DNA from: Bacteroidales bacterium
Lineage (GTDB): Bacteria; Bacteroidota; Bacteroidia; Bacteroidales; UBA10428
Assembly: GCA_016938235.1 (NCBI GenBank)
Contig: JAFGVA010000159.1
Span: 1,296 to 65,295, forward strand
Length of the DNA: 64,000 bases
Direction: 5' to 3'
Shown here: one piece after another, positions 15,403 to 63,560 of the stretch
Layout: every line of letters starts with the position of its first letter
How positions within the stretch are numbered: the stretch's first letter is position 1
Notes under the pieces: generated by a model
Told to the model about the DNA's origin: nothing
The model's input: the letters and a program-made list of their open reading frames with translations, nothing else
Databases searched by the model: none
Position numbers and translations under genes: made by a program

Positions 15403-17877
15403 ATGATTAAGGGGGGAGCAGATAAAATCGCGTTGATTTCGGGGGATAACAACATAACCTACAGACAACTGGGAATTTACACCCAACAGTTTTCTGCTTT
15501 GTTTTCCGATATTAAGCCGCAGAGCAGGGTTGGTATATTTTCTGAAAACAGCTTAGAGTGGATTTATACTTTCTATTCAATTCTGAATAATAAGAGTATA
15601 CCCGTGCCAATTGATTTTATGGCCGGCATCGACGATGTTGCCTTTATTGTCAGCGATTGTACTCCAGAGGTAATTTTTTGCTCAAAAGCTAAGCTGACAT
15701 TAATGAAGGAAGCATTGACTCTGGTTAAATATGAGCCAAGACTCATTATTATTGATGATGTAGAAATTAATGACGAGGTAGTTGTTCCTGAGCTGAACAT
15801 TCAATACAATCTTTACGATACCGCTGTGATAATTTACACCAGCGGAACAACCGGAAGTCCGAAAGGCGTTATGTTATCTTTTGACAACCTGATAGCTAAT
15901 GTTGAGGCGGTTAGTGAGAGGGTGCCAATTTATACTCCTTCTGATCGGTTGATGATATTGTTACCCATGCATCATATTTTTCCTTTGCTGGGATCATTAA
16001 TTGCTCCGCTGATGGTTGGAGCTTCAGCCGCGATTTGCCCATCGCTCAATGCTGACGATATTATTAAAACTCTTCAAAGAAATAAAATTACTATTGTAAT
16101 TGGGGTTCCACGGTTATATAGTCTAATCCGAAAAGGAATTATCGATAAAATAAACCAAAAGAAACTGGCCGTTATGCTTTTTAAATTGGCAAAGCGGATA
16201 AATTCACCCAAATTTTCTAAAATAATCTTCAAAGAGATTCACACTAAGTTTGGAGGATCAGTGAAATCTCTGGTTTCGGGAGGTGCTGCACTTGACCCTG
16301 AAGTTGGTAAAGATTTTAAAGCCTTGGGTTTCGATATTCTTGAAGGTTTTGGAATGACAGAATCAGCGCCCATGATTACTTTTACTCGTCCCGGGAAGTT
16401 TAAAGCAGGATCTGCTGGTCAACCCGTACCAGGAGTTAAGGTTGAATCGAGAGATGGTGAAATTGTAGCTTCGGGCAGAAATGTGATGCTTGGCTATTAC
16501 AACAGGCCGGAAGAAACTGCTGAAGTCTTGCGTGACGGATGGCTTTATACTGGCGATTTAGGGCATCTTGATAAGAATGGTTTTTTATTTATCACAGGGC
16601 GTAAAAAAGAGATAATAGTACTTTCGAACGGGAAAAATATTAATCCTAACGAAATAGAATATAAACTTGAAAAGCACGAAGCCGTTCAGGAAGTAGGCGT
16701 TTTTCTGCTTAGCGATAAATTATCGGCTATATTTGTGCCCAATGAGAAGTTTTTGAAGGATAATAAAATTGAAGATTTTAACCTTTATGTAAAGAATGAA
16801 ATCATAAAGCCATTTAACGAAAGAGCTTCTGTATCGAAAAGAATTTTAAAATATTTTATTTCCAGTGATGAGCTTCCCCGCACCCGGTTAAGCAAATTAC
16901 AAAGGTTTAAACTCGAAGAGGTTGCTTTAAATTGTTCCAATATAAAAATCAGGAAGGAGCAGCCGGAGCAAAAACAATTTAAAGAATTAAGTACTTTAAT
17001 CAGTTTTCTCGAGGAACAGCTTGCAACCCAGATTAGCCCCGAAGATATTCTTGCTGAGGATTTGGCAATAGATTCACTTGCCAAAATTACTCTGCTGGTT
17101 TATATTGAAAATACATTCGGAGTTGTTATTGCCGAAGATGGATTAAATGAGTTTAAAACCGTTCACGATCTGGCAAATTATATTCGTGAAAAGAAGACAA
17201 GAATTACTCCGGAATCTATTGACTGGAAAGAAATTCTTAAAGAGAAAATCAATTTTTCACTCCCTAAGGTTGGCCTGTCTTTCAATTTCTTTAATTGGTC
17301 ATACCGGGCACTTTTAAAATCCTTTTTAAGGATAAAAGCTGATGGTGTTACAAATGTTCCCGATGGCCCTTGCATTCTGGTACCTAATCATCAGAGTTTT
17401 CTTGACGGAGTTGTAGTTGCCTCTATTTTGAAGCGCAAAGACATGCAGAAAACTTTCTTCTATGCAAAAGAGAAATACTGGAAAAGATGGTGGCAGAAGT
17501 TTGTTGCAAAAAAGAACAACATAATCCTTATGGATTTGAATTCAGATTTAAAGCTCTCTATTCAGAAAATGGCTGAAGTTTTAAAGAAGGGACGAAAGTT
17601 GGTAATATTTCCTGAAGGCACACGTTCAAAAGACGGTAAATTAGGAGATTTTAAGAAGACCTTTGCAATTCTCTCTCAGGAACTTAACGTACCTATTGTT
17701 CCGGTAGTTATTGATGGAGCGCACAAGGCCTTTCCTGTTGGAGCCAAGTTTCCCAGGCTTTTTAAAAAGGTAAAGGTAAAGTTTTTACCTCCGGTAAATC
17801 CATTAAATCATACTTACGAAACGCTTAAATCTAAAGTTGAAGATTTGGTTTCGTCACATTTGAATAAAGCAGTCTGA
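15403..17877 (+). CDS. Tri-domain fusion: AMP-dependent acyl synthetase/ligase, phosphopantetheine carrier domain, PlsC-type lysophospholipid acyltransferase
   Basis: AMP-binding motifs IIYTSGTTGSPKGV, GFGMTE, YTGDLGHLDKNGFLFITGRKKE. Carrier motif LAIDSLAKITLL (Ser codon at 17074). Acyltransferase motifs NHQSFLDG (H-x4-D) and FPEGTRS. The first ATG in frame is at 15403; the ORF-track TTG at 15334 only adds a hydrophobic junk-like extension. Confidence 0.85.
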   Translation: MIKGGADKIALISGDNNITYRQLGIYTQQFSALFSDIKPQSRVGIFSENSLEWIYTFYSILNNKSIPVPIDFMAGIDDVAFIVSDCTPEVIFCSKAKLTLMKEALTLVKYEPRLIIIDDVEINDEVVVPELNIQYNLYDTAVIIYTSGTTGSPKGVMLSFDNLIANVEAVSERVPIYTPSDRLMILLPMHHIFPLLGSLIAPLMVGASAAICPSLNADDIIKTLQRNKITIVIGVPRLYSLIRKGIIDKINQKKLAVMLFKLAKRINSPKFSKIIFKEIHTKFGGSVKSLVSGGAALDPEVGKDFKALGFDILEGFGMTESAPMITFTRPGKFKAGSAGQPVPGVKVESRDGEIVASGRNVMLGYYNRPEETAEVLRDGWLYTGDLGHLDKNGFLFITGRKKEIIVLSNGKNINPNEIEYKLEKHEAVQEVGVFLLSDKLSAIFVPNEKFLKDNKIEDFNLYVKNEIIKPFNERASVSKRILKYFISSDELPRTRLSKLQRFKLEEVALNCSNIKIRKEQPEQKQFKELSTLISFLEEQLATQISPEDILAEDLAIDSLAKITLLVYIENTFGVVIAEDGLNEFKTVHDLANYIREKKTRITPESIDWKEILKEKINFSLPKVGLSFNFFNWSYRALLKSFLRIKADGVTNVPDGPCILVPNHQSFLDGVVVASILKRKDMQKTFFYAKEKYWKRWWQKFVAKKNNIILMDLNSDLKLSIQKMAEVLKKGRKLVIFPEGTRSKDGKLGDFKKTFAILSQELNVPIVPVVIDGAHKAFPVGAKFPRLFKKVKVKFLPPVNPLNHTYETLKSKVEDLVSSHLNKAV

Positions 17878-17904
17878 TAAAAAATAAAAAGACATACATT
17901 AATA

Positions 17905-17934
17905 AAAAACCCCGGATTGTGTCCGGGGTTTTTC
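17905..17934. terminator. Bidirectional Rho-independent terminator
   Basis: AAAAACCCCGGA-TTGTG-TCCGGGGTTTTT has an A-run and a T-run on either side, so it could serve the fusion gene (+). It could also serve rpoD (-), but lies ~140 nt from the rpoD stop. Confidence 0.8.
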
Positions 17935-18070
17935 TGTTTACCTGTAATCTTTTGCGTGAAACTCAAATTTCAAAAACAACCTGTCCTGCATAATAAATAG
18001 ATGGAAAGTGCTTTGAAATTTGTAAGTTGAACAATCCCCCCAAAGGCGGAGAGTAACATACCTGCATTTT

Positions 18071-28376: not shown

Positions 28377-28384
28377 TAAATTTG
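28377..28384 (+). promoter_or_regulatory. Bacteroidota -7 promoter box (TAnnTTTG) upstream of the tRNA-Pro leader array
   Basis: TAAATTTG is a perfect match to TAnnTTTG. It lies 17 nt before the first tRNA-like unit. Confidence 0.5.
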
Positions 28385-28401: not shown

Positions 28402-28611
28402 CGGGGCATAGCGCTTCCGATAGTTATCGGGACCGGTGAGCGAGTTGAGGATGTCCCGCAGAAATTATAGAATTATTTCGACCGCAAAACGTGAAACTAA
28501 TATTTACGGGGCATAGCGCTCCCGATAGTTATCGGGACCGGTAAGTGAGTTGAGGATGTTCCGCAGACATTATAGAATTATTTCGACTGCAAAACGTGAA
28601 ACTAATATTTA
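28402..28611 (+). repeat. Two head-to-tail 105-bp units, each an anticodon-less tRNA-Pro look-alike (~57 nt) plus spacer, abutting tRNA-Pro
   Basis: Units 28402..28506 and 28507..28611 are 99/105 identical. Each starts with CGGGGCATAGCGC, the first 13 nt of the tRNA. Next comes the hairpin T(T/C)CCGAT-AGTT-ATCGGGA, then CCGGT, and later TGT(C/T)CCG, which can pair back to CGGGGCA. Confidence 0.9.
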
Positions 28612-28685
28612 CGGGGCATAGCGCAGTCCGGTAGCGCGCTACGTTCGGGACGTAGAGGTCGTGGGTTCGAATCCCGCTGCCCCGA
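28612..28685 (+). tRNA. tRNA-Pro (anticodon CGG)
   Basis: Cloverleaf folded by hand: acceptor CGGGGCA/TGCCCCG, D-stem GCGC/GCGC, anticodon stem CTACG/CGTAG with loop TTCGGGA (CGG at 28646..28648), T-arm GTGGG-TTCGAAT-CCCGC, discriminator A. CCA is not encoded. Confidence 0.9.
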
Positions 28686-28695
28686 CAAAAGAAAA

Positions 28696-40914: not shown

Positions 40915-41196
40915 ATGTTTTACAGGGAATTATTCTTTTTTATTTTTTTGTCAGCAAGTTTGTTTCTATACAGTCAGGAAGACTCATTAAAGCAATCAAT
41001 AAATTTGATTTTTGAGGAACGGCTTGATGTTATGGGGAAAGTATCGGGCGTAAAAGCTATTAGTTTACTTAAGACACCCTCAACTGTTACTATTATTGAC
41101 AGATCAACCATCAAGAAATATACTTTCATGACGGTTGCTGAAGCTTTGGCCATTGTCCCCGGAATTGATGTTCTTCAGACAGAAGTTTGCATATGA
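40915..41196 (+). pseudogene. TonB-dependent receptor stub: signal peptide plus the first part of the plug domain only (93 codons)
   Basis: LLKTPSTVTIIDRSTIKKYTFMTVAEALAIVPGIDVLQT matches the start of TBDR plug domains. The ORF stops immediately afterwards and overlaps the DUF4154 start by 10 nt. The ~600-aa barrel is absent. Confidence 0.55.
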
Positions 41197-41711
41197 AATA
41201 CAGAATACTATTTATATTGATAATTATTTTTTTCCCTGTGTTGAATGCAAATTCGCAAATAGAGGAAGGAATTTTAAAAGCTGCATTTATTGAAAAGTTC
41301 ACCAAGCTGATAAACTGGCCCGAAAAAACCACTCAAAACGATAAGTTTACAATCTGTGTTGTTGGAAATAAAAGTTTTTACGACCAATTACATAAAGCCT
41401 ATTCAAAAAGAGAATTAAAGGGTAAAGAAGTTGTCGTATTGTTCAATGAAAAGATTCCTGTTAACCAGGAAATTGATATTCTTTACCTGGGAGTTGAAAG
41501 CAATAAATTATTAGATGATGCTGTTGAACATCTGAAAAATTGTCTGATAGTTTCTGAATACGAGGGTTTCGCCAAAAAGGGAGCGCATATTAACTTTTAT
41601 TTAACCGAGAAAGAAACAATGCATTTTGAAATTAATAAAAGTAGTATGGACGATTCAGGATTTAAAATGGATTTTTTACTGCTTGATTTTGCAAAAGTTG
41701 TAAATAAATAA
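41187..41711 (+). CDS. DUF4154 / YfiR-like periplasmic protein
   Basis: Signal peptide, then [15 protein letters not shown], as in the three paralogs at 62392, 63051 and 63748. The C-terminal F.IN...A...G......LL...K pattern is also present. Confidence 0.75.
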
Positions 41712-44320
41712 TGGTTAATTTTAAAAACATATCAATTAAGGTAAAAATTATTTCCATTGTAACGGGGATAGCTGCTATTGCTGTGTTCTTTAGCTTGTTT
41801 TTTACCACCATAAACCAGGTTAGCGTTGTTAAAAGTGAGATTGTTGATGATTTACAAAAAGAAATGATTTTAATAGGTGACTACTGTGTAATGCCTATTG
41901 AATTTAATTATCCCGAAAGAGTTGATAAGATTCTTAGTGAATATATGGATGATAAAGAATTTCTTGTTTTGACTGTTTACGACAATGAAGATCACATAAT
42001 TTCAGAATTAAGAAACGACAGTCTTTACCAGAAAACACTTCAACCCAATTCAAAATCAACGAAAACTTTTTATGCTAATATTGTTGAGATAATTGAACCT
42101 ATTCGATATGATCATAAAGATTATGGCAGTATACATCTGGTTTATTATACAGGTCTGAGAACCTACATTATAAAAAAAATTGGAGTAGCACTACTGCTAT
42201 TTTTTATAATATTATGTGTTTCTTTTTTCCTGGCTCTTTATTTTCAAAAATACATTTCTCAGCCTATTCAGGACTTGGCTACTCTGGCTTCACAAGTTTC
42301 AAAAAATCGTGATTATTCTTTACGGATAGTAAAGCACTCGAATGACGAAGTTGGAACCCTCGTTGAAAATTTCAATAATATGCTTACGACCATTGGTATG
42401 CAGCAAAAGGAAAATGAAGAAGCAGCCATTGCGGTAGCTGAAAGCGAGGAAAAATTCAGAAATATATTCAATTTCAGCCTTGATGGAATTTTGGTTGTGA
42501 GAAAAGAAGGAGAAATCTTAGAAGCTAGCAAAACAGCTTGTTTGATTCTTGGCTACAATCGGGACGATCTTATCGGAAGTTCAATACTTACAATCATGCC
42601 GGAAGGTTATTTCAAGCAGCGTAGTGAAGCTATGAAAATTCTAAATGCCGAGGGGAAATATACATTTTTCAGTAAATATATAACGCATAAAGGGGCCGAG
42701 ATTTTTCTGGAGTTTAGCAGTAAATTTATTAATTATGAAGGTACCGAAGTAATACTAACCTTCTTAAGGAATATAACAGACAGGATTAAAAACGAGGAAG
42801 ACCTGAGGGAAAGTGAGGAACGGTATAAAAGGTTGGTTGAACATTTGCCCAGTGCAATAATTCTGCATCACAAAGGCAAAATTATGTACATTAATAACTC
42901 TGTTAAACAACTTTTAGGTGGCCGGTTTGTGAATGAATTCTTGAACAAAGACTTCATAAGTTTTATAAGCGAAGCAGATAGACCAAGATTACTCAGCCAG
43001 ATCGAACAAGCTGAAGAATTGAATCTTCCATCAGAATCCATTGAGATTAAGATGATTAAAACCGATAATCAGAGAATTTTAGCAGAGATGGTTTCAATTC
43101 CATTGGTGGTTAACAGAAGACGGGTTATTTTATCAGTCTTTAATGATATAACAGAGCGAAAACGGATAGAAAAAGAATTGATAGTTGCCAAAAACCAGGC
43201 TGAAGAAAGTGACAGATTAAAATCGGCATTCTTAGCCAATATGAGTCATGAAATAAGAACGCCGATGAATGGTATAATTGGTTTTACTGATTTACTTGAA
43301 AGCGATAGGTTAACCGATAAAGACAAGAAGCGTTATATCAATATTATAAAGGCCAGTGCCGATAGGTTATTGTCCATAATTAATGATATTATAGATATTT
43401 CAAAAATTGAATCAGGGGCAATAAATATAAGCCTGGCCGAATTTGAATTGAAAAAGCTTGTCAATGATTTATACCAGTTCTTCATACCGCAAATGAGCGG
43501 GAAAAAACTTGGTTTTACTCTTGAAGTTGATACTGAAGACGATATTATACTAAACTCAGATAAAGGAAAAATTAATCAGGTTATTACTAATTTGCTCTCG
43601 AATGCCTATAAATTTACAAATGAAGGTTCGATAAAGATTAAAGTTTTGACTGATGAAATCTCAGAAACAGTTTCGGTTACTGTTGAAGATACAGGTATTG
43701 GAATACCTGAAAATCAGCTTAATATGGTGTTTGAGCGATTCCGTCAGGCAGAGCATTTCGCTTCAGAATTTCATGAAGGAACCGGGCTTGGACTTTCAAT
43801 TTCAAAGGGCTTTATAGAGGCATTAGGAGGCAGAATTTCTGTAAACTCCCAGGAGAATATCGGAACAAAATTCACCATCATACTGCCTTTCGAGAGACTA
43901 GAGTCGGTCTCAGCCTCAAACCCGGAAAGCAAGACAGATATTACTGAGGTTGACGATTATAGTTCAAAAACCATCTTAATTGTTGAGGATGAACAGTATA
44001 ATTATGAATACCTGGTTGAAGCTCTAAAACCAACAAAAGTTAATACTTTATGGGCAGTAAACGGACTTGAGGCTCTGCAAAAAGTAGTTGAAAATAAAAA
44101 AATTGATTTAGTCCTCATGGATATAAAGCTTCCGATTATGGATGGATATACTGCTACCGAGAAAATTAAAGAGCATAAAAAGGAATTACCGGTTGTGATA
44201 CAAACTGCTTACGGCCTTGAAGATGACAGGCAAAAATCTCTTAGCATTGGAGGCGATGATTATATCTCAAAACCTATTGTTAAGGATGATTTGTATCAAA
44301 TCCTTAAACGGTTCCTGTAA
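41711..44320 (+). CDS. Hybrid sensor histidine kinase / response regulator (2 TM + HAMP, 2 PAS, HisKA, HATPase_c, REC)
   Basis: HAMP-like [19 protein letters not shown]...[16 protein letters not shown] blocks [17 protein letters not shown] and [18 protein letters not shown]-box [15 protein letters not shown]-box [10 protein letters not shown]-boxes DTGIGIP and GTGLGL. Receiver [10 protein letters not shown]...[14 protein letters not shown]. The ATG overlaps the DUF4154 stop (TAATG). Confidence 0.9.
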
Positions 44321-46818: not shown

Positions 46819-46826
46819 TATCTTTG
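46819..46826 (+). promoter_or_regulatory. -7 promoter box (TATCTTTG) upstream of the tRNA-Cys leader array
   Basis: Perfect TAnnTTTG match, 13 nt before the first tRNA-like unit. Confidence 0.5.
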
Positions 46827-46839
46827 CAACCCGAATAAT

Positions 46840-46982
46840 GATTTCGTGTCCGCCGGTTGGCGGATAGACAGTGGTAAAAAAAATACCGGTTTCGTGTCCG
46901 CCGGTTGGCGGATAGGCAGTGGTAAAAAAATACCGGTTTCGTGTCCGCCGGTTGGCGGATAGACAGTGGTAAAAAAAATACC
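46840..46982 (+). repeat. Three head-to-tail 48/47/48-bp units, each a 5'-half tRNA-Cys look-alike, abutting tRNA-Cys
   Basis: Units are 46840..46887, 46888..46934 and 46935..46982. Consensus is GGTTTCGTG + TCCGCC-GGTT-GGCGGA + TAG(A/G)CAGTGGT + A7-8 + TACC. The first 9 nt and the TAGGCAGTGGT block are shared with the tRNA that starts at 46983. Confidence 0.9.
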
Positions 46983-47053
46983 GGTTTCGTGGCCGAGTGG
47001 CTAGGCAGTGGTCTGCAAAACCATGTACAGCGGTTCGAATCCGCTCGAAACCT
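46983..47053 (+). tRNA. tRNA-Cys (anticodon GCA)
   Basis: Acceptor GGTTTCG/CGAAACC, D-arm GCC-GAGTGGCTA-GGC, anticodon stem GTGGT/ACCAT with loop CTGCAAA (GCA at 47015..47017), T-arm AGCGG-TTCGAAT-CCGCT, discriminator T. CCA is not encoded. Confidence 0.9.
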
Positions 47054-47064
47054 CAGGCAGGAAA

Positions 47065-57964: not shown

Positions 57965-58115
57965 CTCCTGAAACAATTAAAATTAAATTAATTAAGCTGA
58001 ATTTTCATTCATAAAAAGGTGCTTATGCATTCATTCCTACTATAAATTTTATTATCTTAAAGTTTAAATGAATGCGGTGCCATCCATATAGATTTTGTTA
58101 ACAGATCCTGAGTTC

Positions 58116-59666
58116 TAACAATTAGTGCGGTAATAAATTCCATTTTGATATTAGCGGTGCAAGTTTACTATTTTGGATTTCCTTGGTAGGCGATCTAAAC
58201 ACAAAGGTTTCTTTGGTCAGATTGTCTTGTATGTGCGTTTCAGTAATGTTCCAAACTAAAAACCGGATTTCACGCAATGATAGCTTTGTAGTCAATTCCA
58301 AGTATTTTTCAGCTATTAGTGCCACAAAACAAATTAGTACATGGGCTTTTATTGCTTCGTGTTTTTGATGGTATATTGGCCTGGTTTGCAAATCAAACTT
58401 GCTCATTCTGAAAGATTGCTCAACGCGCCAAAGCTGGTGATAGCGGTCAATGACCTTCTCGTTGGATAATTGCTGTTCGTTCAAATCGGTACAATATCCC
58501 TTAATGCCCAGCAATAACCTCCTTTTTTCAATCAACACAGTATTTAACTCTATTTTCTCTTTGGTAACCTTCCGGATAAATCGGGTTTTAACTTTCAGTT
58601 CCTGTTTTGCTACCAGCTCCTCGGCTTTTAGTATGAGTTTGTTTAGCTCGTTCAATTCTTTTTTATACCTCTTTAAGGAAAAATCGCATACCAAATCGCC
58701 ATGCTTTGATGGGAAGCGAGCCATTCCCCCGTTTTTCCCGTTCAATGTAGAATGTATCTGTTTTACTAATCCAAGAGTAGCATTTGGTAGCCGGGCGCCC
58801 ACAATGTACGATAGTTCCTTTTTCCTGAGTTCAGCGAGCCTTTCTTCATCGAGCATTGCGGCATCGGCCACAATAACCGGTTTTGTCTGGGGATGTGCTG
58901 AAATAAACGTTTCAAGCACTGGCAGCATGGTTTTACCTTCAAATGTATTGCCCGCAAATATCTGGTACGACAATGGAAAACCCGATTGGGTAACAAGCAA
59001 ACCGATAACAATCTGCGGCTGCTGCGATTTGTTGTCTTTTGAAAACCCTTGGATTTTAAACTCATCAGCCTTAAAAGACTCAAAATACAGCGTGGTAACA
59101 TCGTACAAAACAAAATAGAAAGGCTCGTTGAACTTTTGCTGTGCTACATTGTAGGCACATTGCTCAATATCTGCCTTATAAATTGTTAATTCAGGAATTT
59201 TACGGTAGATACGCTGCGAATATTTGATGCCAAAATAATGTTGCAACAGTTCTATTGAGCGATATTTTGAAGCAGGTTCAACAAGCCGCATGATGGCCAA
59301 ATCAATCAGTAAGCGTGGCAGGTAGTTTAAACTACATTCTTCGATACATTTCATGAAAAACTGATAAGCAAAATGGTGGGTTACTCCAATACACTCGCCC
59401 CTGTCAACAACCATAAGCTTCTGCTTTTGGACAGGGAATAACGATAACTGAGGGGTGTTATCTTCAATCCAATCAAGCGCCTTTCGTTGCAAAACAGATA
59501 ACTCAATATCGTCTTTTGCACTACCAATATGTTTTAACACCATTGACTTATGGCCAATATACCGTACAACTTGAATTGCAGTTGAGCCCGATTTGGTTTT
59601 AACTTTTCGAATCGAATACATACCCCAAAATTATGCGTTAGTGCGGTAAATACGCACTAATTTTAA
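58116..59666 (-). mobile_element. IS1634-family-like insertion sequence (~1.55 kb), apparently intact
   Basis: Single transposase ORF. A 10-bp perfect terminal inverted core AATTAGTGCG lies at 58120..58129 and, inverted, at 59653..59662 (12/14 over the extended ends). The transposase stop codon lies inside the left IR. No target-site duplication could be resolved, so the ends are approximate. Confidence 0.7.
58122..59621 (-). CDS. IS1634-family DDE transposase
   Basis: N-terminus MYSIRKVKTKSGSTAIQVV matches the usual IS1634-family start. DDE-region motifs are VLYDVTTLYFES, VIVADAAMLDE and YHQLWRVEQSFRMSK. Confidence 0.8.
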   Translation of the reverse strand: MYSIRKVKTKSGSTAIQVVRYIGHKSMVLKHIGSAKDDIELSVLQRKALDWIEDNTPQLSLFPVQKQKLMVVDRGECIGVTHHFAYQFFMKCIEECSLNYLPRLLIDLAIMRLVEPASKYRSIELLQHYFGIKYSQRIYRKIPELTIYKADIEQCAYNVAQQKFNEPFYFVLYDVTTLYFESFKADEFKIQGFSKDNKSQQPQIVIGLLVTQSGFPLSYQIFAGNTFEGKTMLPVLETFISAHPQTKPVIVADAAMLDEERLAELRKKELSYIVGARLPNATLGLVKQIHSTLNGKNGGMARFPSKHGDLVCDFSLKRYKKELNELNKLILKAEELVAKQELKVKTRFIRKVTKEKIELNTVLIEKRRLLLGIKGYCTDLNEQQLSNEKVIDRYHQLWRVEQSFRMSKFDLQTRPIYHQKHEAIKAHVLICFVALIAEKYLELTTKLSLREIRFLVWNITETHIQDNLTKETFVFRSPTKEIQNSKLAPLISKWNLLPH

Positions 59667-60025: not shown

Positions 60026-60031
60026 ACTTAG

Positions 60032-60104
<73 letters not shown>

Positions 60105-60150: not shown

Positions 60151-60202
60151 TAGGACTCGTCCTACGAGCTTCTCCCGATGTATATCGGGACTCTACTCCG
60201 CA
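60151..60202 (-). repeat. Single 52-nt 5'-half tRNA-Met look-alike upstream of tRNA-Met
   Basis: The minus strand reads TGCGGAGTAGAG + TCCCGAT-ATAC-ATCGGGA + GA + AGCTCGT + AGGA-CGAG-TCCT + A. It shares TGCGG(G/A)GTAGAG and AGCTCGT with the tRNA located 46 nt downstream. Confidence 0.85.
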
Positions 60203-60242: not shown

Positions 60243-60250
60243 CAAATATA
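60243..60250 (-). promoter_or_regulatory. -7 promoter box (TATATTTG on the minus strand) upstream of the tRNA-Met leader
   Basis: Perfect TAnnTTTG match, 40 nt upstream of the tRNA-like unit. No hairpin + T-run lies between it and the tRNA. Confidence 0.45.
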
Positions 60251-62391: not shown

Positions 62392-62901
62392 ATGGGGCAA
62401 AAATCTATTAAAATCCTGATTGCTATGTTATTTGCTTTTCAGGTAAGTGTTCATGCTCAAACTAATGTTGACAAAGCGCAGGCACTATTTATTTATAATT
62501 TCCTTTCGCACACAATGTGGCCTGAAAATTTTCCGATGGATAATATTAAAATCGGAATATACGGAACAACAAATACCTCAAACACACTTCAGGAATTTAC
62601 CAAGGAAAGAAAAGTTGGCACTAAAGGTATTATGGTATTTCCTGTTAACTCGCTTGAAGAATTGTCGAATTGTAATGTTCTACTGGTTGCCTATAATAGT
62701 AGCAATAAATTACCTGACATCATGAGCAAGGTAAAAAACAAACCATGTCTGGTAATTACAGAAAAATCCGGCTGTATTGCGTCAGGAGCTGCAATTGAAT
62801 TTGAGATTGTAAATGACAAACTGAAATTCAGAGCTAACCTTGATAATGCAAAAAATCAAAAGCTTATGCTTAGTTCTGCTCTTCTTAATATGTCTCTCTA
62901 A
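62392..62901 (+). CDS. DUF4154 / YfiR-like periplasmic protein (paralog 1 of the tandem set)
   Basis: Signal peptide, AQALFIYNFLSHTMWPE, NVLLVAYNSSNKL, KPCLVITEK, IEFEIVNDKLKFRANLDNA. Confidence 0.75.
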   Translation: MGQKSIKILIAMLFAFQVSVHAQTNVDKAQALFIYNFLSHTMWPENFPMDNIKIGIYGTTNTSNTLQEFTKERKVGTKGIMVFPVNSLEELSNCNVLLVAYNSSNKLPDIMSKVKNKPCLVITEKSGCIASGAAIEFEIVNDKLKFRANLDNAKNQKLMLSSALLNMSL

Positions 62902-63050: not shown

Positions 63051-63560
63051 ATGGGTTCAAGAATCGTTAAATTATTAATTGTTTGTTTTGCTTTTTTTAG
63101 CAATAATGTTTGGGCGCAAACCAGTGTAGATGAAGCGCAAGCCATTTTTATTTACAATTTTCTGTCGCATACATTATGGCCAGAAACTGTTAGTAATAAT
63201 ACAATAGAGATAGGCGTGTATGGGGAAACTAATACCTATAAAACCTTATGTGACTACACTCAAAACCGTAAAGTCGGTACAAAGTCAATTGCAGTTAAGA
63301 AACTAAATTCTATTAATGAAGCTGTAAACTGCAATGTGATTTTAATAGCTTATAACAGCTCAAACCAGATGAGCCAGATAAATGAAAAGCTTAAAAACAA
63401 GCCATGCCTTGTAATTACTGAGAAAGCCGGCACAACCAATCTGGGAGCTATCATCGAGTTCACTCTGGTAAATGACAAACTAAAATACAGGGCTAACCAG
63501 GAAAACGCAATAGATCACAACCTTTATCTAAGTGCGGCTCTGCTGAAGATGTCGCTATAA
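63051..63560 (+). CDS. DUF4154 / YfiR-like periplasmic protein (paralog 2)
   Basis: 169 aa, collinear with the 62392 product and roughly 60% identical by eye: AQAIFIYNFLSHTLWPE, NVILIAYNSSNQM, KPCLVITEK, IEFTLVNDKLKYRANQENA. Confidence 0.75.
   Translation: MGSRIVKLLIVCFAFFSNNVWAQTSVDEAQAIFIYNFLSHTLWPETVSNNTIEIGVYGETNTYKTLCDYTQNRKVGTKSIAVKKLNSINEAVNCNVILIAYNSSNQMSQINEKLKNKPCLVITEKAGTTNLGAIIEFTLVNDKLKYRANQENAIDHNLYLSAALLKMSL

Follow-up and report, generated by a model that had tools for sequence, protein, structure and literature searches.

How do the leaders of two unrelated tRNA genes come to share one and the same hairpin stem? The question arises in a 64,000-nucleotide (nt) stretch of a Bacteroidales bacterium (contig JAFGVA010000159.1 of assembly GCA_016938235.1, positions 1,296 to 65,295 of the forward strand; hereafter the window), where the stem TCCCGAT/ATCGGGA lies inside partial copies of both a tRNA-Pro and a tRNA-Met gene and a related hairpin lies in copies of a tRNA-Cys gene. 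The original prediction, made from the letters alone, offered two explanations: a tiny palindromic module, akin to repetitive extragenic palindromic (REP) sequences or to MITEs (transposable elements of the miniature inverted-repeat kind), that inserts specifically into the D-loop DNA of tRNA genes, or convergent selection for a hairpin bound by a protein or RNA. We find that the hairpin belongs to a family of short palindromic modules found throughout Bacteroidota, with TCCCGATAGCTATCGGGA as its canonical form and TCCCG/CGGGA as its defining basal stem. The Pro and Met stems are identical because both are copies of this one family; common descent suffices, and convergent selection is not needed to explain them. 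We further consider it somewhat probable that the system is selfish DNA in which a REP-like hairpin module is coupled to the duplication of tRNA segments by a nuclease; the window would hold nuclease-free versions of it.

Partial tRNA copies with hairpins precede all three tRNA genes of the window

The window contains exactly three tRNA genes, on which ARAGORN and Rfam agree: tRNA-Pro (CGG) at 28612-28686 on the plus strand (67.4 bits in Rfam), tRNA-Cys (GCA) at 46983-47054, also plus, and tRNA-Met (CAT) at 60031-60104 on the minus strand. We take the last to be of the initiator type from its 5' CGCGGGG and its GGG/CCC anticodon stem, which are initiator features. Each gene is preceded by incomplete duplicates of its own 5' region (two for Pro, three for Cys and one for Met), and upstream of each array we read a promoter -7 box of the Bacteroidota type (TAnnTTTG): TAAATTTG at 28377-28384 (plus) for Pro, TATCTTTG at 46819-46826 (plus) for Cys and TATATTTG at 60243-60250 (minus) for Met. 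The units thus belong to the leader transcript of the tRNA. We conclude that these apparent tRNA mimics are non-functional partial duplicates of the adjacent gene, placed between promoter and working gene and co-transcribed as a leader.

The two Pro units occupy 28402-28461 (aligned by eye to tRNA-Pro) and 28507-28566, both on the plus strand, and share about 93% identity across 105 nt, a length that includes the A/T-rich 45-nt spacer (28462-28506, plus) recurring behind each. They run from CGGGGCATAGCGC through T(T/C)CCGAT-AGTT-ATCGGGA and CCGGT to the acceptor 3' strand at the end; unit 1 joins tRNA positions 1-13 to the hairpin, CCGGT, a variable-loop remnant and the acceptor 3' strand, and the anticodon and T arms are absent from both units. 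The hairpin stands directly after the 5' strand of the D-stem, with the D-loop AGT swapped out, and the tRNA sequence CCGGTA then continues. Unit 2 carries TCCCGAT-AGTT-ATCGGGA (28520-28537) and unit 1 the variant TTCCGAT-AGTT-ATCGGGA (28415-28432), in which the changed pair is a U.G wobble when read on the tRNA strand. Their AGTT loop is a frequent variant within the module family.

The single Met unit (60153-60201, minus) comprises GCGGAGTAGAG, the hairpin, GA, AGCTCGT and a small hairpin CTCGT-AGG-ACGAG. Its module, TCCCGAT-ATAC-ATCGGGA at 60173-60190 as read on the minus (tRNA) strand, begins one base within the 5' strand of the D-stem and takes the place of the D-loop, after which AGCTCGT continues; the hairpin is present in the predicted minimum-free-energy fold. 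The three Cys units, 47-48 nt each, lie in tandem at 46840-46982 (plus) and contain the acceptor 5' strand, TG, a hairpin of a second family (TCCGCC-GGTT-GGCGGA at 46849-46864, 46897-46912 and 46944-46959), TAG(A/G)CAGTGGT and GGTA-A7/8-TACC. Here the hairpin occupies the place of the entire 10-nt D-arm, and TAGGCAGTGGT then continues. The unit ends (46865-46887, 46913-46934 and 46960-46982) hold the GGTA-A7/8-TACC element, in which 4 bp of stem enclose 7-8 nt of loop made up of A alone, and which stands where the anticodon arm would be. Re-reading the window bore out the hairpin positions and sequences first reported for the Pro, Met and Cys units. That the hairpin occupies one shared site in the D-loop holds for Pro and nearly holds for Met, and to call the Cys site equivalent is fair.

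These hairpins stand out from the rest of the window. The pattern TCCCGAT-N3-6-ATCGGGA has two exact matches against 0.00 expected (100 shuffles) and TCCGCC...GGCGGA has three against 0.01; among 15 GC-rich perfect hairpins with stems of at least 6 bp, all five of the TCC...GGA type fall inside tRNA leaders. The heptamer TCCCGAT alone occurs 20 times against 5 expected, the surplus being solitary copies within coding sequence. No leader unit matched an Rfam family, at the gathering threshold or at E<=1, and the tRNA model RF00005 matched the intact genes only. A terminator or attenuator role for the hairpins was ruled out, as no T-run follows any of them, and so was duplication of an integrase attachment site, since the duplicated part is the 5' end, in tandem, within 50-100 nt of the gene. 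In two relatives (L005 and L007, with 55% and 49% identity in a flanking protein), tRNA-Pro (CGG) stands right behind the same promoter box with no units between, which indicates that the Pro units are lineage-specific gains.

The hairpin is a short module spread throughout Bacteroidota

A scan of one genome per species across 185,579 species for TCCCGAT-N4-ATCGGGA returned at least 120 loci. Among the 80 matches listed, about 85% came from Bacteroidota, with all orders represented, and the commonest form was the perfect 18-nt palindrome TCCCGATAGCTATCGGGA with its AGCT centre. Variants alter both arms jointly (ACCCGAT...ATCGGGT, TTCCGAT...ATCGGAA and GCCCGAT...ATCGGGC). The copies in the listed loci are mainly intergenic, some loci holding several within 8 kb, and 7 of 57 canonical copies lie within long open reading frames (ORFs); some cap a longer hairpin and others are embedded in tandem arrays of 7-8-nt repeats. 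The same 14-18 nt recur in hundreds of copies from isolate genomes, complete genomes and metagenome-assembled genomes (MAGs). Coincidence, independent convergence or an artefact of assembly, for which the shortness of the motif is the only argument, can be set aside with near certainty given these counts and a shuffle expectation of zero.

The TCCGCC...GGCGGA hairpin of the Cys units, which we regard as a sister family of the TCCCG/CGGGA module, also occurs elsewhere: twice in L045, in a tRNA-Val-like context in L207, and nested in L300. In the last case (1751-1870, a tRNA-Asn pseudo-copy), TCCGCC...GGCGGA lies within the loop of a TCCCGAC...GTCGGGA hairpin, which suggests insertion into the loops of pre-existing hairpins. 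Contigs of the IMG/VR viral collection (L131-L176) hold the exact 18-mer 53 times in 46 stretches, four times inside long reading frames and once near a tRNA; no ORF of the hairpin-associated nuclease family described below was found in these stretches. An origin of the module from a natural anticodon arm, raised by a single tRNA-Lys-UUU call in L210, was ruled out, since a TCCCG...CGGGA arm occurs in no further natural tRNA. In the literature searched we found neither the 18-mer nor its 14-mer core, and nothing relevant on palindromic elements of Bacteroidota, on GIY-YIG proteins with tRNA genes or on pseudo-tRNA leaders.

The module replaces loops in partial copies of tRNA genes

In the species-genome scan, about 11 of 135 copies (roughly 8%) had a tRNA no more than 150 nt away, and nearly every one of these sat inside a partial copy of that tRNA. 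With about 0.4% of a genome near tRNAs, this is an enrichment of roughly 10-20 fold. A second scan, in metagenomes, for hairpins directly after the D-stem sequence TAGC(G/T)C yielded at least 143 copies in at least 120 loci. A tRNA follows downstream on the same strand for 112 of the 143 listed, and in 105 of these 112 the left flank of the hairpin is the 5' end of that very tRNA. At least 18 tRNA species carry such copies. The hairpin is exchanged for 3-4 nt of the D-loop, chiefly GTT, AGC, AGT, ATT, AGCT or AGTT; resemblance to the tRNA mostly stops at positions 27-31; and the distance from hairpin copy to intact tRNA ranges from 17 to 411 nt with a median near 45. Arrays reach five units, often in tandem. 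A -7 box stands upstream of the first unit, at most 50 nt away, in 42 of 94 related loci where 4 would be expected, and in only 4 of the 94 does one lie between the last hairpin and the tRNA. The arrays are not a constant companion of tRNA genes, as 59 of 160 tRNAs in these loci have no units.

Replacement extends beyond the D-loop. In longer units the anticodon arm is exchanged precisely at its boundaries, and 15 of 19 such replacement hairpins, which the search pattern had not pre-selected, read TCCCG(A/C)...(T/G)CGGGA, with inner parts that vary yet remain paired. In other units the T-loop or the variable region has been exchanged.

Read on the tRNA strand, the metagenome loci (L177-L296) have 10 hairpins with a GGCT loop and none with the complementary AGCC. 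Several loci hold full-length tRNA genes with the hairpin in the D-loop (L190, Asn; L202, Pro-TGG; L209, L226 and L283, Val-GAC; L234, Ala); an intact copy is absent from each stretch examined, and ARAGORN does not call these genes.

The module behaves as an insertion

The housekeeping gene aroA occurs in a filled and an empty form. The filled allele of Lacibacter cauensis reads gactcac-TCCCGATAGCTATCGGGA-tcacgac, and an empty allele, 96% identical at the protein level, reads gactcac-AAC-tcatgac. Three nucleotides have been exchanged for 18, a net gain of 15 nt or five amino acids (aa) that lengthens the protein from 423 to 428 aa, and a third allele carries the module in a different reading frame. 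These alleles indicate that the module behaves as an insertion. In-frame copies also occur in a sensor kinase gene and in the glutaminyl-tRNA synthetase gene of one Bacteroidota, in the latter inside a 12-aa insert relative to the Escherichia coli enzyme.

The flanks of 74 unique copies show no target-site duplication, exact repeats of at least 4 nt being found in only 3 of 74; the one regularity of the flank profile is that T is nearly never at -1 and A nearly never at +1. Target-site duplication had been a candidate on account of hairpins with like flanks on both sides ([X][hairpin][X]) in 7-8-nt arrays, and it was ruled out by the count of 3 in 74 and by the empty aroA allele, which already holds the repeat. 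The arrays in question consist, for example, of ACGGTTT or GGGAGAAT repeats (L083 at 2060-2130, L046 at 1210-1345, L024, L043 and L127), one embedded hairpin adjoining a 13-copy GGTGGATT array; in each, the register runs on past the hairpin as though 3 nt had been exchanged.

In the protein alignment of Lacibacter AroA (columns 187-207 and 258-272), the hairpin site also bears other inserts, such as SAQSSAETPSTS and SRLRSAGQAS, and a second variable site has inserts of the SPNPSKGG type. These additional inserts indicate that further short insertion modules exist in these genomes.

Taken together, the proposal of a tiny palindromic module is largely right, and its restriction to tRNA genes is wrong. 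The module is real, behaves as an insertion in aroA and recurs in the D-loops of many tRNA species, but it is specific neither to tRNA genes, most listed copies being intergenic or in-frame within genes, nor to the D-loop. Its distribution combines REP-like scatter with an enrichment beside tRNA-like sequence.

A small GIY-YIG nuclease is associated with the pseudo-copies in related loci

A profile built from ORFs lying between a pseudo-copy and a tRNA matches the Pfam family GIY-YIG (PF01541). The loci examined contain 36 such ORFs, all co-directional with the tRNAs and 0-530 nt from a hairpin, in one of two layouts: a 5' copy plugged by a hairpin, the ORF and the intact tRNA, or the intact tRNA, the ORF and a plugged copy. 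The association also holds when approached from the protein: all five homologues chosen on protein similarity alone lie in tRNA operons, beside pseudo-copies with hairpin-replaced loops. These ORFs belong to a large family of at least 3980 protein clusters (81-112 aa), in which the members with a named source are from Flavobacteriaceae, other Bacteroidota, Ignavibacteria and Nomurabacteria. In each ORF a single Pfam match spans almost the whole protein, with no joined DNA-binding domain. About 80% of the unit arrays have no ORF nearby, and a nuclease-free Asn unit has the sequence aagttcttaaa in common with nuclease-bearing Asn cassettes.

The window itself belongs to the nuclease-free kind: no GIY-YIG gene was found in it by tblastn or by a Pfam scan of its 37 ORFs. 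The same Pfam scan found no Y1 transposase, and no gene of the RAYT (REP-associated tyrosine transposase) or IS200 type, suggested earlier as a possible mobiliser, was seen in the window; the gene associated with the hairpin in related loci is the small GIY-YIG nuclease. The only transposase of the window is a DDE_Tnp_1 ORF of 499 aa (58122-59621, minus) directly downstream of tRNA-Met, with CCATATAGATTTTGTT on either side of it in direct orientation, near 58086 and 59927.

How the units may have arisen

The element that we favour, selfish DNA, would build on the arrangement seen in related loci, where stand-alone GIY-YIG genes reside in tRNA operons with pseudo-copies on their flanks. By analogy with SegB, the GIY-YIG homing endonuclease of the tRNA cluster of phage T4, the putative nuclease would cut conserved motifs of tRNA genes, and repair would yield tandem segmental duplications. 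The hairpin module, probably recognised through its basal stem, would then replace the D-loop, anticodon arm or T-loop of the redundant copies, as the plugged units attest, and would presumably abolish both tRNA function and the conserved motifs. In the window, the nuclease gene would have been lost or would be acting from elsewhere in the genome. Three points in this are inferred: the causal role of the nuclease in the duplications, movement of the hairpin by this or a different enzyme, and the origin of the window units in such events. The symmetry of the module points to an element that acts at the DNA level: the AGCT centre dominates, and AGTT and its complement AACT are about balanced (10 versus 8 in the leaders).

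Several observations sit uneasily with this proposal. The basal stem is conserved and the inner pairs covary, which implies some recognition constraint on the hairpin and hints at selection on RNA; of the four stem mismatches available, a tiny sample, all three that can wobble pair as G.U when read on the sense strand; and the GGCT bias described above is one of strand. The window has neither a GIY-YIG gene nor hairpins outside tRNA leaders, so the evidence for mobility comes from other genomes, and the module searches demanded exact stems, so that decayed copies are under-sampled. The GIY-YIG proteins comprise essentially nothing beyond a catalytic domain, which sets them apart from sequence-specific homing endonucleases. 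Beside each cassette the intact tRNA retains the presumed target motifs, which leaves a simple homing-immunity logic incomplete, and the proposed mechanism does not account for the exchange of 18 nt for 3.

The marks of selection on RNA are what a functional leader would explain: co-transcribed half-tRNA mimics with a stable hairpin, acting in cis or in trans, might tune pre-tRNA folding or processing by RNase P, stabilise the precursor, or titrate a tRNA-binding protein through the UCCCG/CGGGA stem. The units do lie within the transcribed leader, the hairpin is predicted to form, whole arms are exchanged precisely at their boundaries, and the changes at paired positions that distinguish Pro units 1 and 2 allow wobble pairing on the sense strand; the conserved basal 5 bp with covarying inner pairs, seen in hairpins outside the selection of the search pattern, and the preference for GGCT over AGCC fit as well. 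We nevertheless regard a leader function as rather unlikely, because the identical module sits in-frame in housekeeping genes and in unrelated intergenic DNA, because the close relatives L005 and L007 and more than a third of the tRNAs in the same loci (59 of 160) manage without units, and because the amount of tRNA retained differs widely from unit to unit. AGCT is, moreover, a palindrome of DNA and not a stabilising RNA tetraloop, and near-identical tandem units speak for recent amplification rather than long-term conservation. Less likely still is that the GIY-YIG protein attacks tRNAs or their genes and that the plugged pseudo-tRNAs bind it uncut, much as the repeat RNA of a type III antitoxin does, which would make nuclease-free arrays, that of the window included, orphan protectors of particular tRNAs. 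Such decoys would account for the order of promoter, tandem repeats and small nuclease ORF, which resembles that of ToxIN, for plugs that hit exactly the D-loop, the anticodon arm and the T-loop, and for the specificity of every unit for the neighbouring tRNA. They would not account for the large majority of arrays without a nearby ORF or for modules far from any tRNA, and to our knowledge every characterised GIY-YIG enzyme is a DNase.

The full-length tRNA genes that carry a D-loop hairpin in stretches that contain no intact copy (L190, L202, L209, L226, L283 and L234) would make sense if the hairpin were excised from the transcript like an intron, leaving the gene functional. This we hold to be very improbable: 105 of 112 cases have the intact gene just downstream and most hairpin-bearing copies end at positions 27-31, the window units lack the anticodon and T arms, the 18-mer is translated in-frame within proteins, and we know of no bacterial splicing motif or enzyme for such a hairpin. 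A bolder reading may be entertained, tentatively: the TCCCG/CGGGA hairpins and the 81-112-aa GIY-YIG proteins could be the two parts of a mobile or conflict system, present in Bacteroidota and relatives, that has so far gone unrecognised. It might be a REPtron-like element in which a GIY-YIG protein instead of a Y1 transposase swaps the hairpin into DNA loops, or a tRNA or tRNA-gene nuclease restrained by plugged pseudo-tRNA decoys, the window arrays then being orphan protectors of the Pro, Cys and initiator Met tRNAs.

Relation to known systems

The module resembles REP sequences, Rickettsia palindromic elements (RPEs) and SegB cassettes, yet fails defining features of each. With REP sequences, their composite bacterial interspersed mosaic elements (BIMEs) and the RAYT genes that complete a REPtron, it shares short hairpin-forming palindromes, a stem whose base is conserved and whose tip varies, and a nuclease-type gene with hairpin copies on its flanks. 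Dispersal largely outside genes would be a further likeness; it is seen for the module across Bacteroidota, whereas in the window every copy lies in a tRNA leader. REPs end in a conserved GTAG or CGTC tetranucleotide (PMC3733652), a tag not found in the flank profile of the 74 unique module copies. The module is also only 18 nt long, is often a perfect palindrome, keeps one sequence across a phylum rather than within one species, replaces 3 nt and occurs in-frame in genes, and the gene linked to it, located in a tRNA operon, encodes a GIY-YIG nuclease and no Y1 (HUH) transposase. RPEs have in common with the module that they insert in-frame into genes for functional proteins, as seen here in aroA, the glutaminyl-tRNA synthetase gene and a sensor kinase gene; they are about 100-150 bp long, confined to Rickettsia, and without known connection to tRNA pseudo-copies or GIY-YIG genes.

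Phage T4 and T6 SegB offers the likeness of a GIY-YIG gene embedded among tRNA genes, as in the related loci (it is absent from the window). SegB recognises tRNA genes by their T-loop motif (PMC2330249), and it drives the amplification, in tandem, of tRNA and segB (PMC13096335). It is larger, includes DNA-binding parts and is phage-borne, whereas the GIY-YIG ORFs here are chromosomal and barely exceed a catalytic domain, and neither a conserved hairpin module nor loop-replaced pseudo-tRNAs have been described for it. ToxIN, a type III toxin-antitoxin system, likewise transcribes tandem short RNA repeats upstream of a small nuclease gene, but its toxin is an endoRNase of unrelated fold and its repeats do not stem from tRNA; the majority of arrays here lack an ORF, the window repeats are followed by none, and the ORF of related loci is of the GIY-YIG and not the ToxN type.

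Two further parallels come from other domains of life. The GC-rich palindromes of fungal mitochondria, namely the PstI palindromes flanking tRNA genes in Neurospora, the GC clusters of yeast and the double-hairpin elements of Allomyces, are very short, look mobile, cluster beside tRNA genes and enter coding regions as well. They are, however, organellar, have other sequences, and flank tRNA genes instead of replacing loops of duplicated copies. The non-canonical tRNA introns of Thermoproteales archaea are short, related inserts that occupy several sites, the D-loop among them, across many different tRNA genes, and are thought to spread between genes. Those introns are spliced at bulge-helix-bulge motifs from sole-copy genes, whereas the carriers here are bacterial and mostly truncated duplicates beside an intact gene.

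If the selfish-DNA reading is correct, one 18-nt palindrome, accompanied by a minimal GIY-YIG nuclease, has spread phylum-wide and edits spare tRNA copies loop by loop, a cellular parallel to the SegB-driven tRNA amplification of phage; housekeeping enzymes gain five residues from it, and its exchange of 18 nt for 3 without target duplication would be an insertion chemistry not yet described. The findings also have practical consequences: tandem pseudo-tRNAs confuse tRNA annotation, the hairpins yield spurious hypothetical peptides and indels in protein alignments, and the leaders alter the pre-tRNA transcripts of Bacteroidota, a phylum whose tRNA processing has been little studied.

Other features of the window

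The sole additional Rfam match at E<=1 in the window, BSnc120 at 17864-17951 (24 bits, E=0.48), is most likely due to chance. It overlaps a plain hairpin, AAACCCCGG...CCGGGGTTT, right behind an ORF ending at 17877, which may be a terminator. Among the proteins encoded in the window is SprA, which is typical of Bacteroidota. Three paralogous DUF4154 (YfiR/HmsC-like) genes lie at 41187-41711, 62392-62901 and 63051-63560, one of them directly upstream of a hybrid PAS sensor kinase gene (41711-44320).

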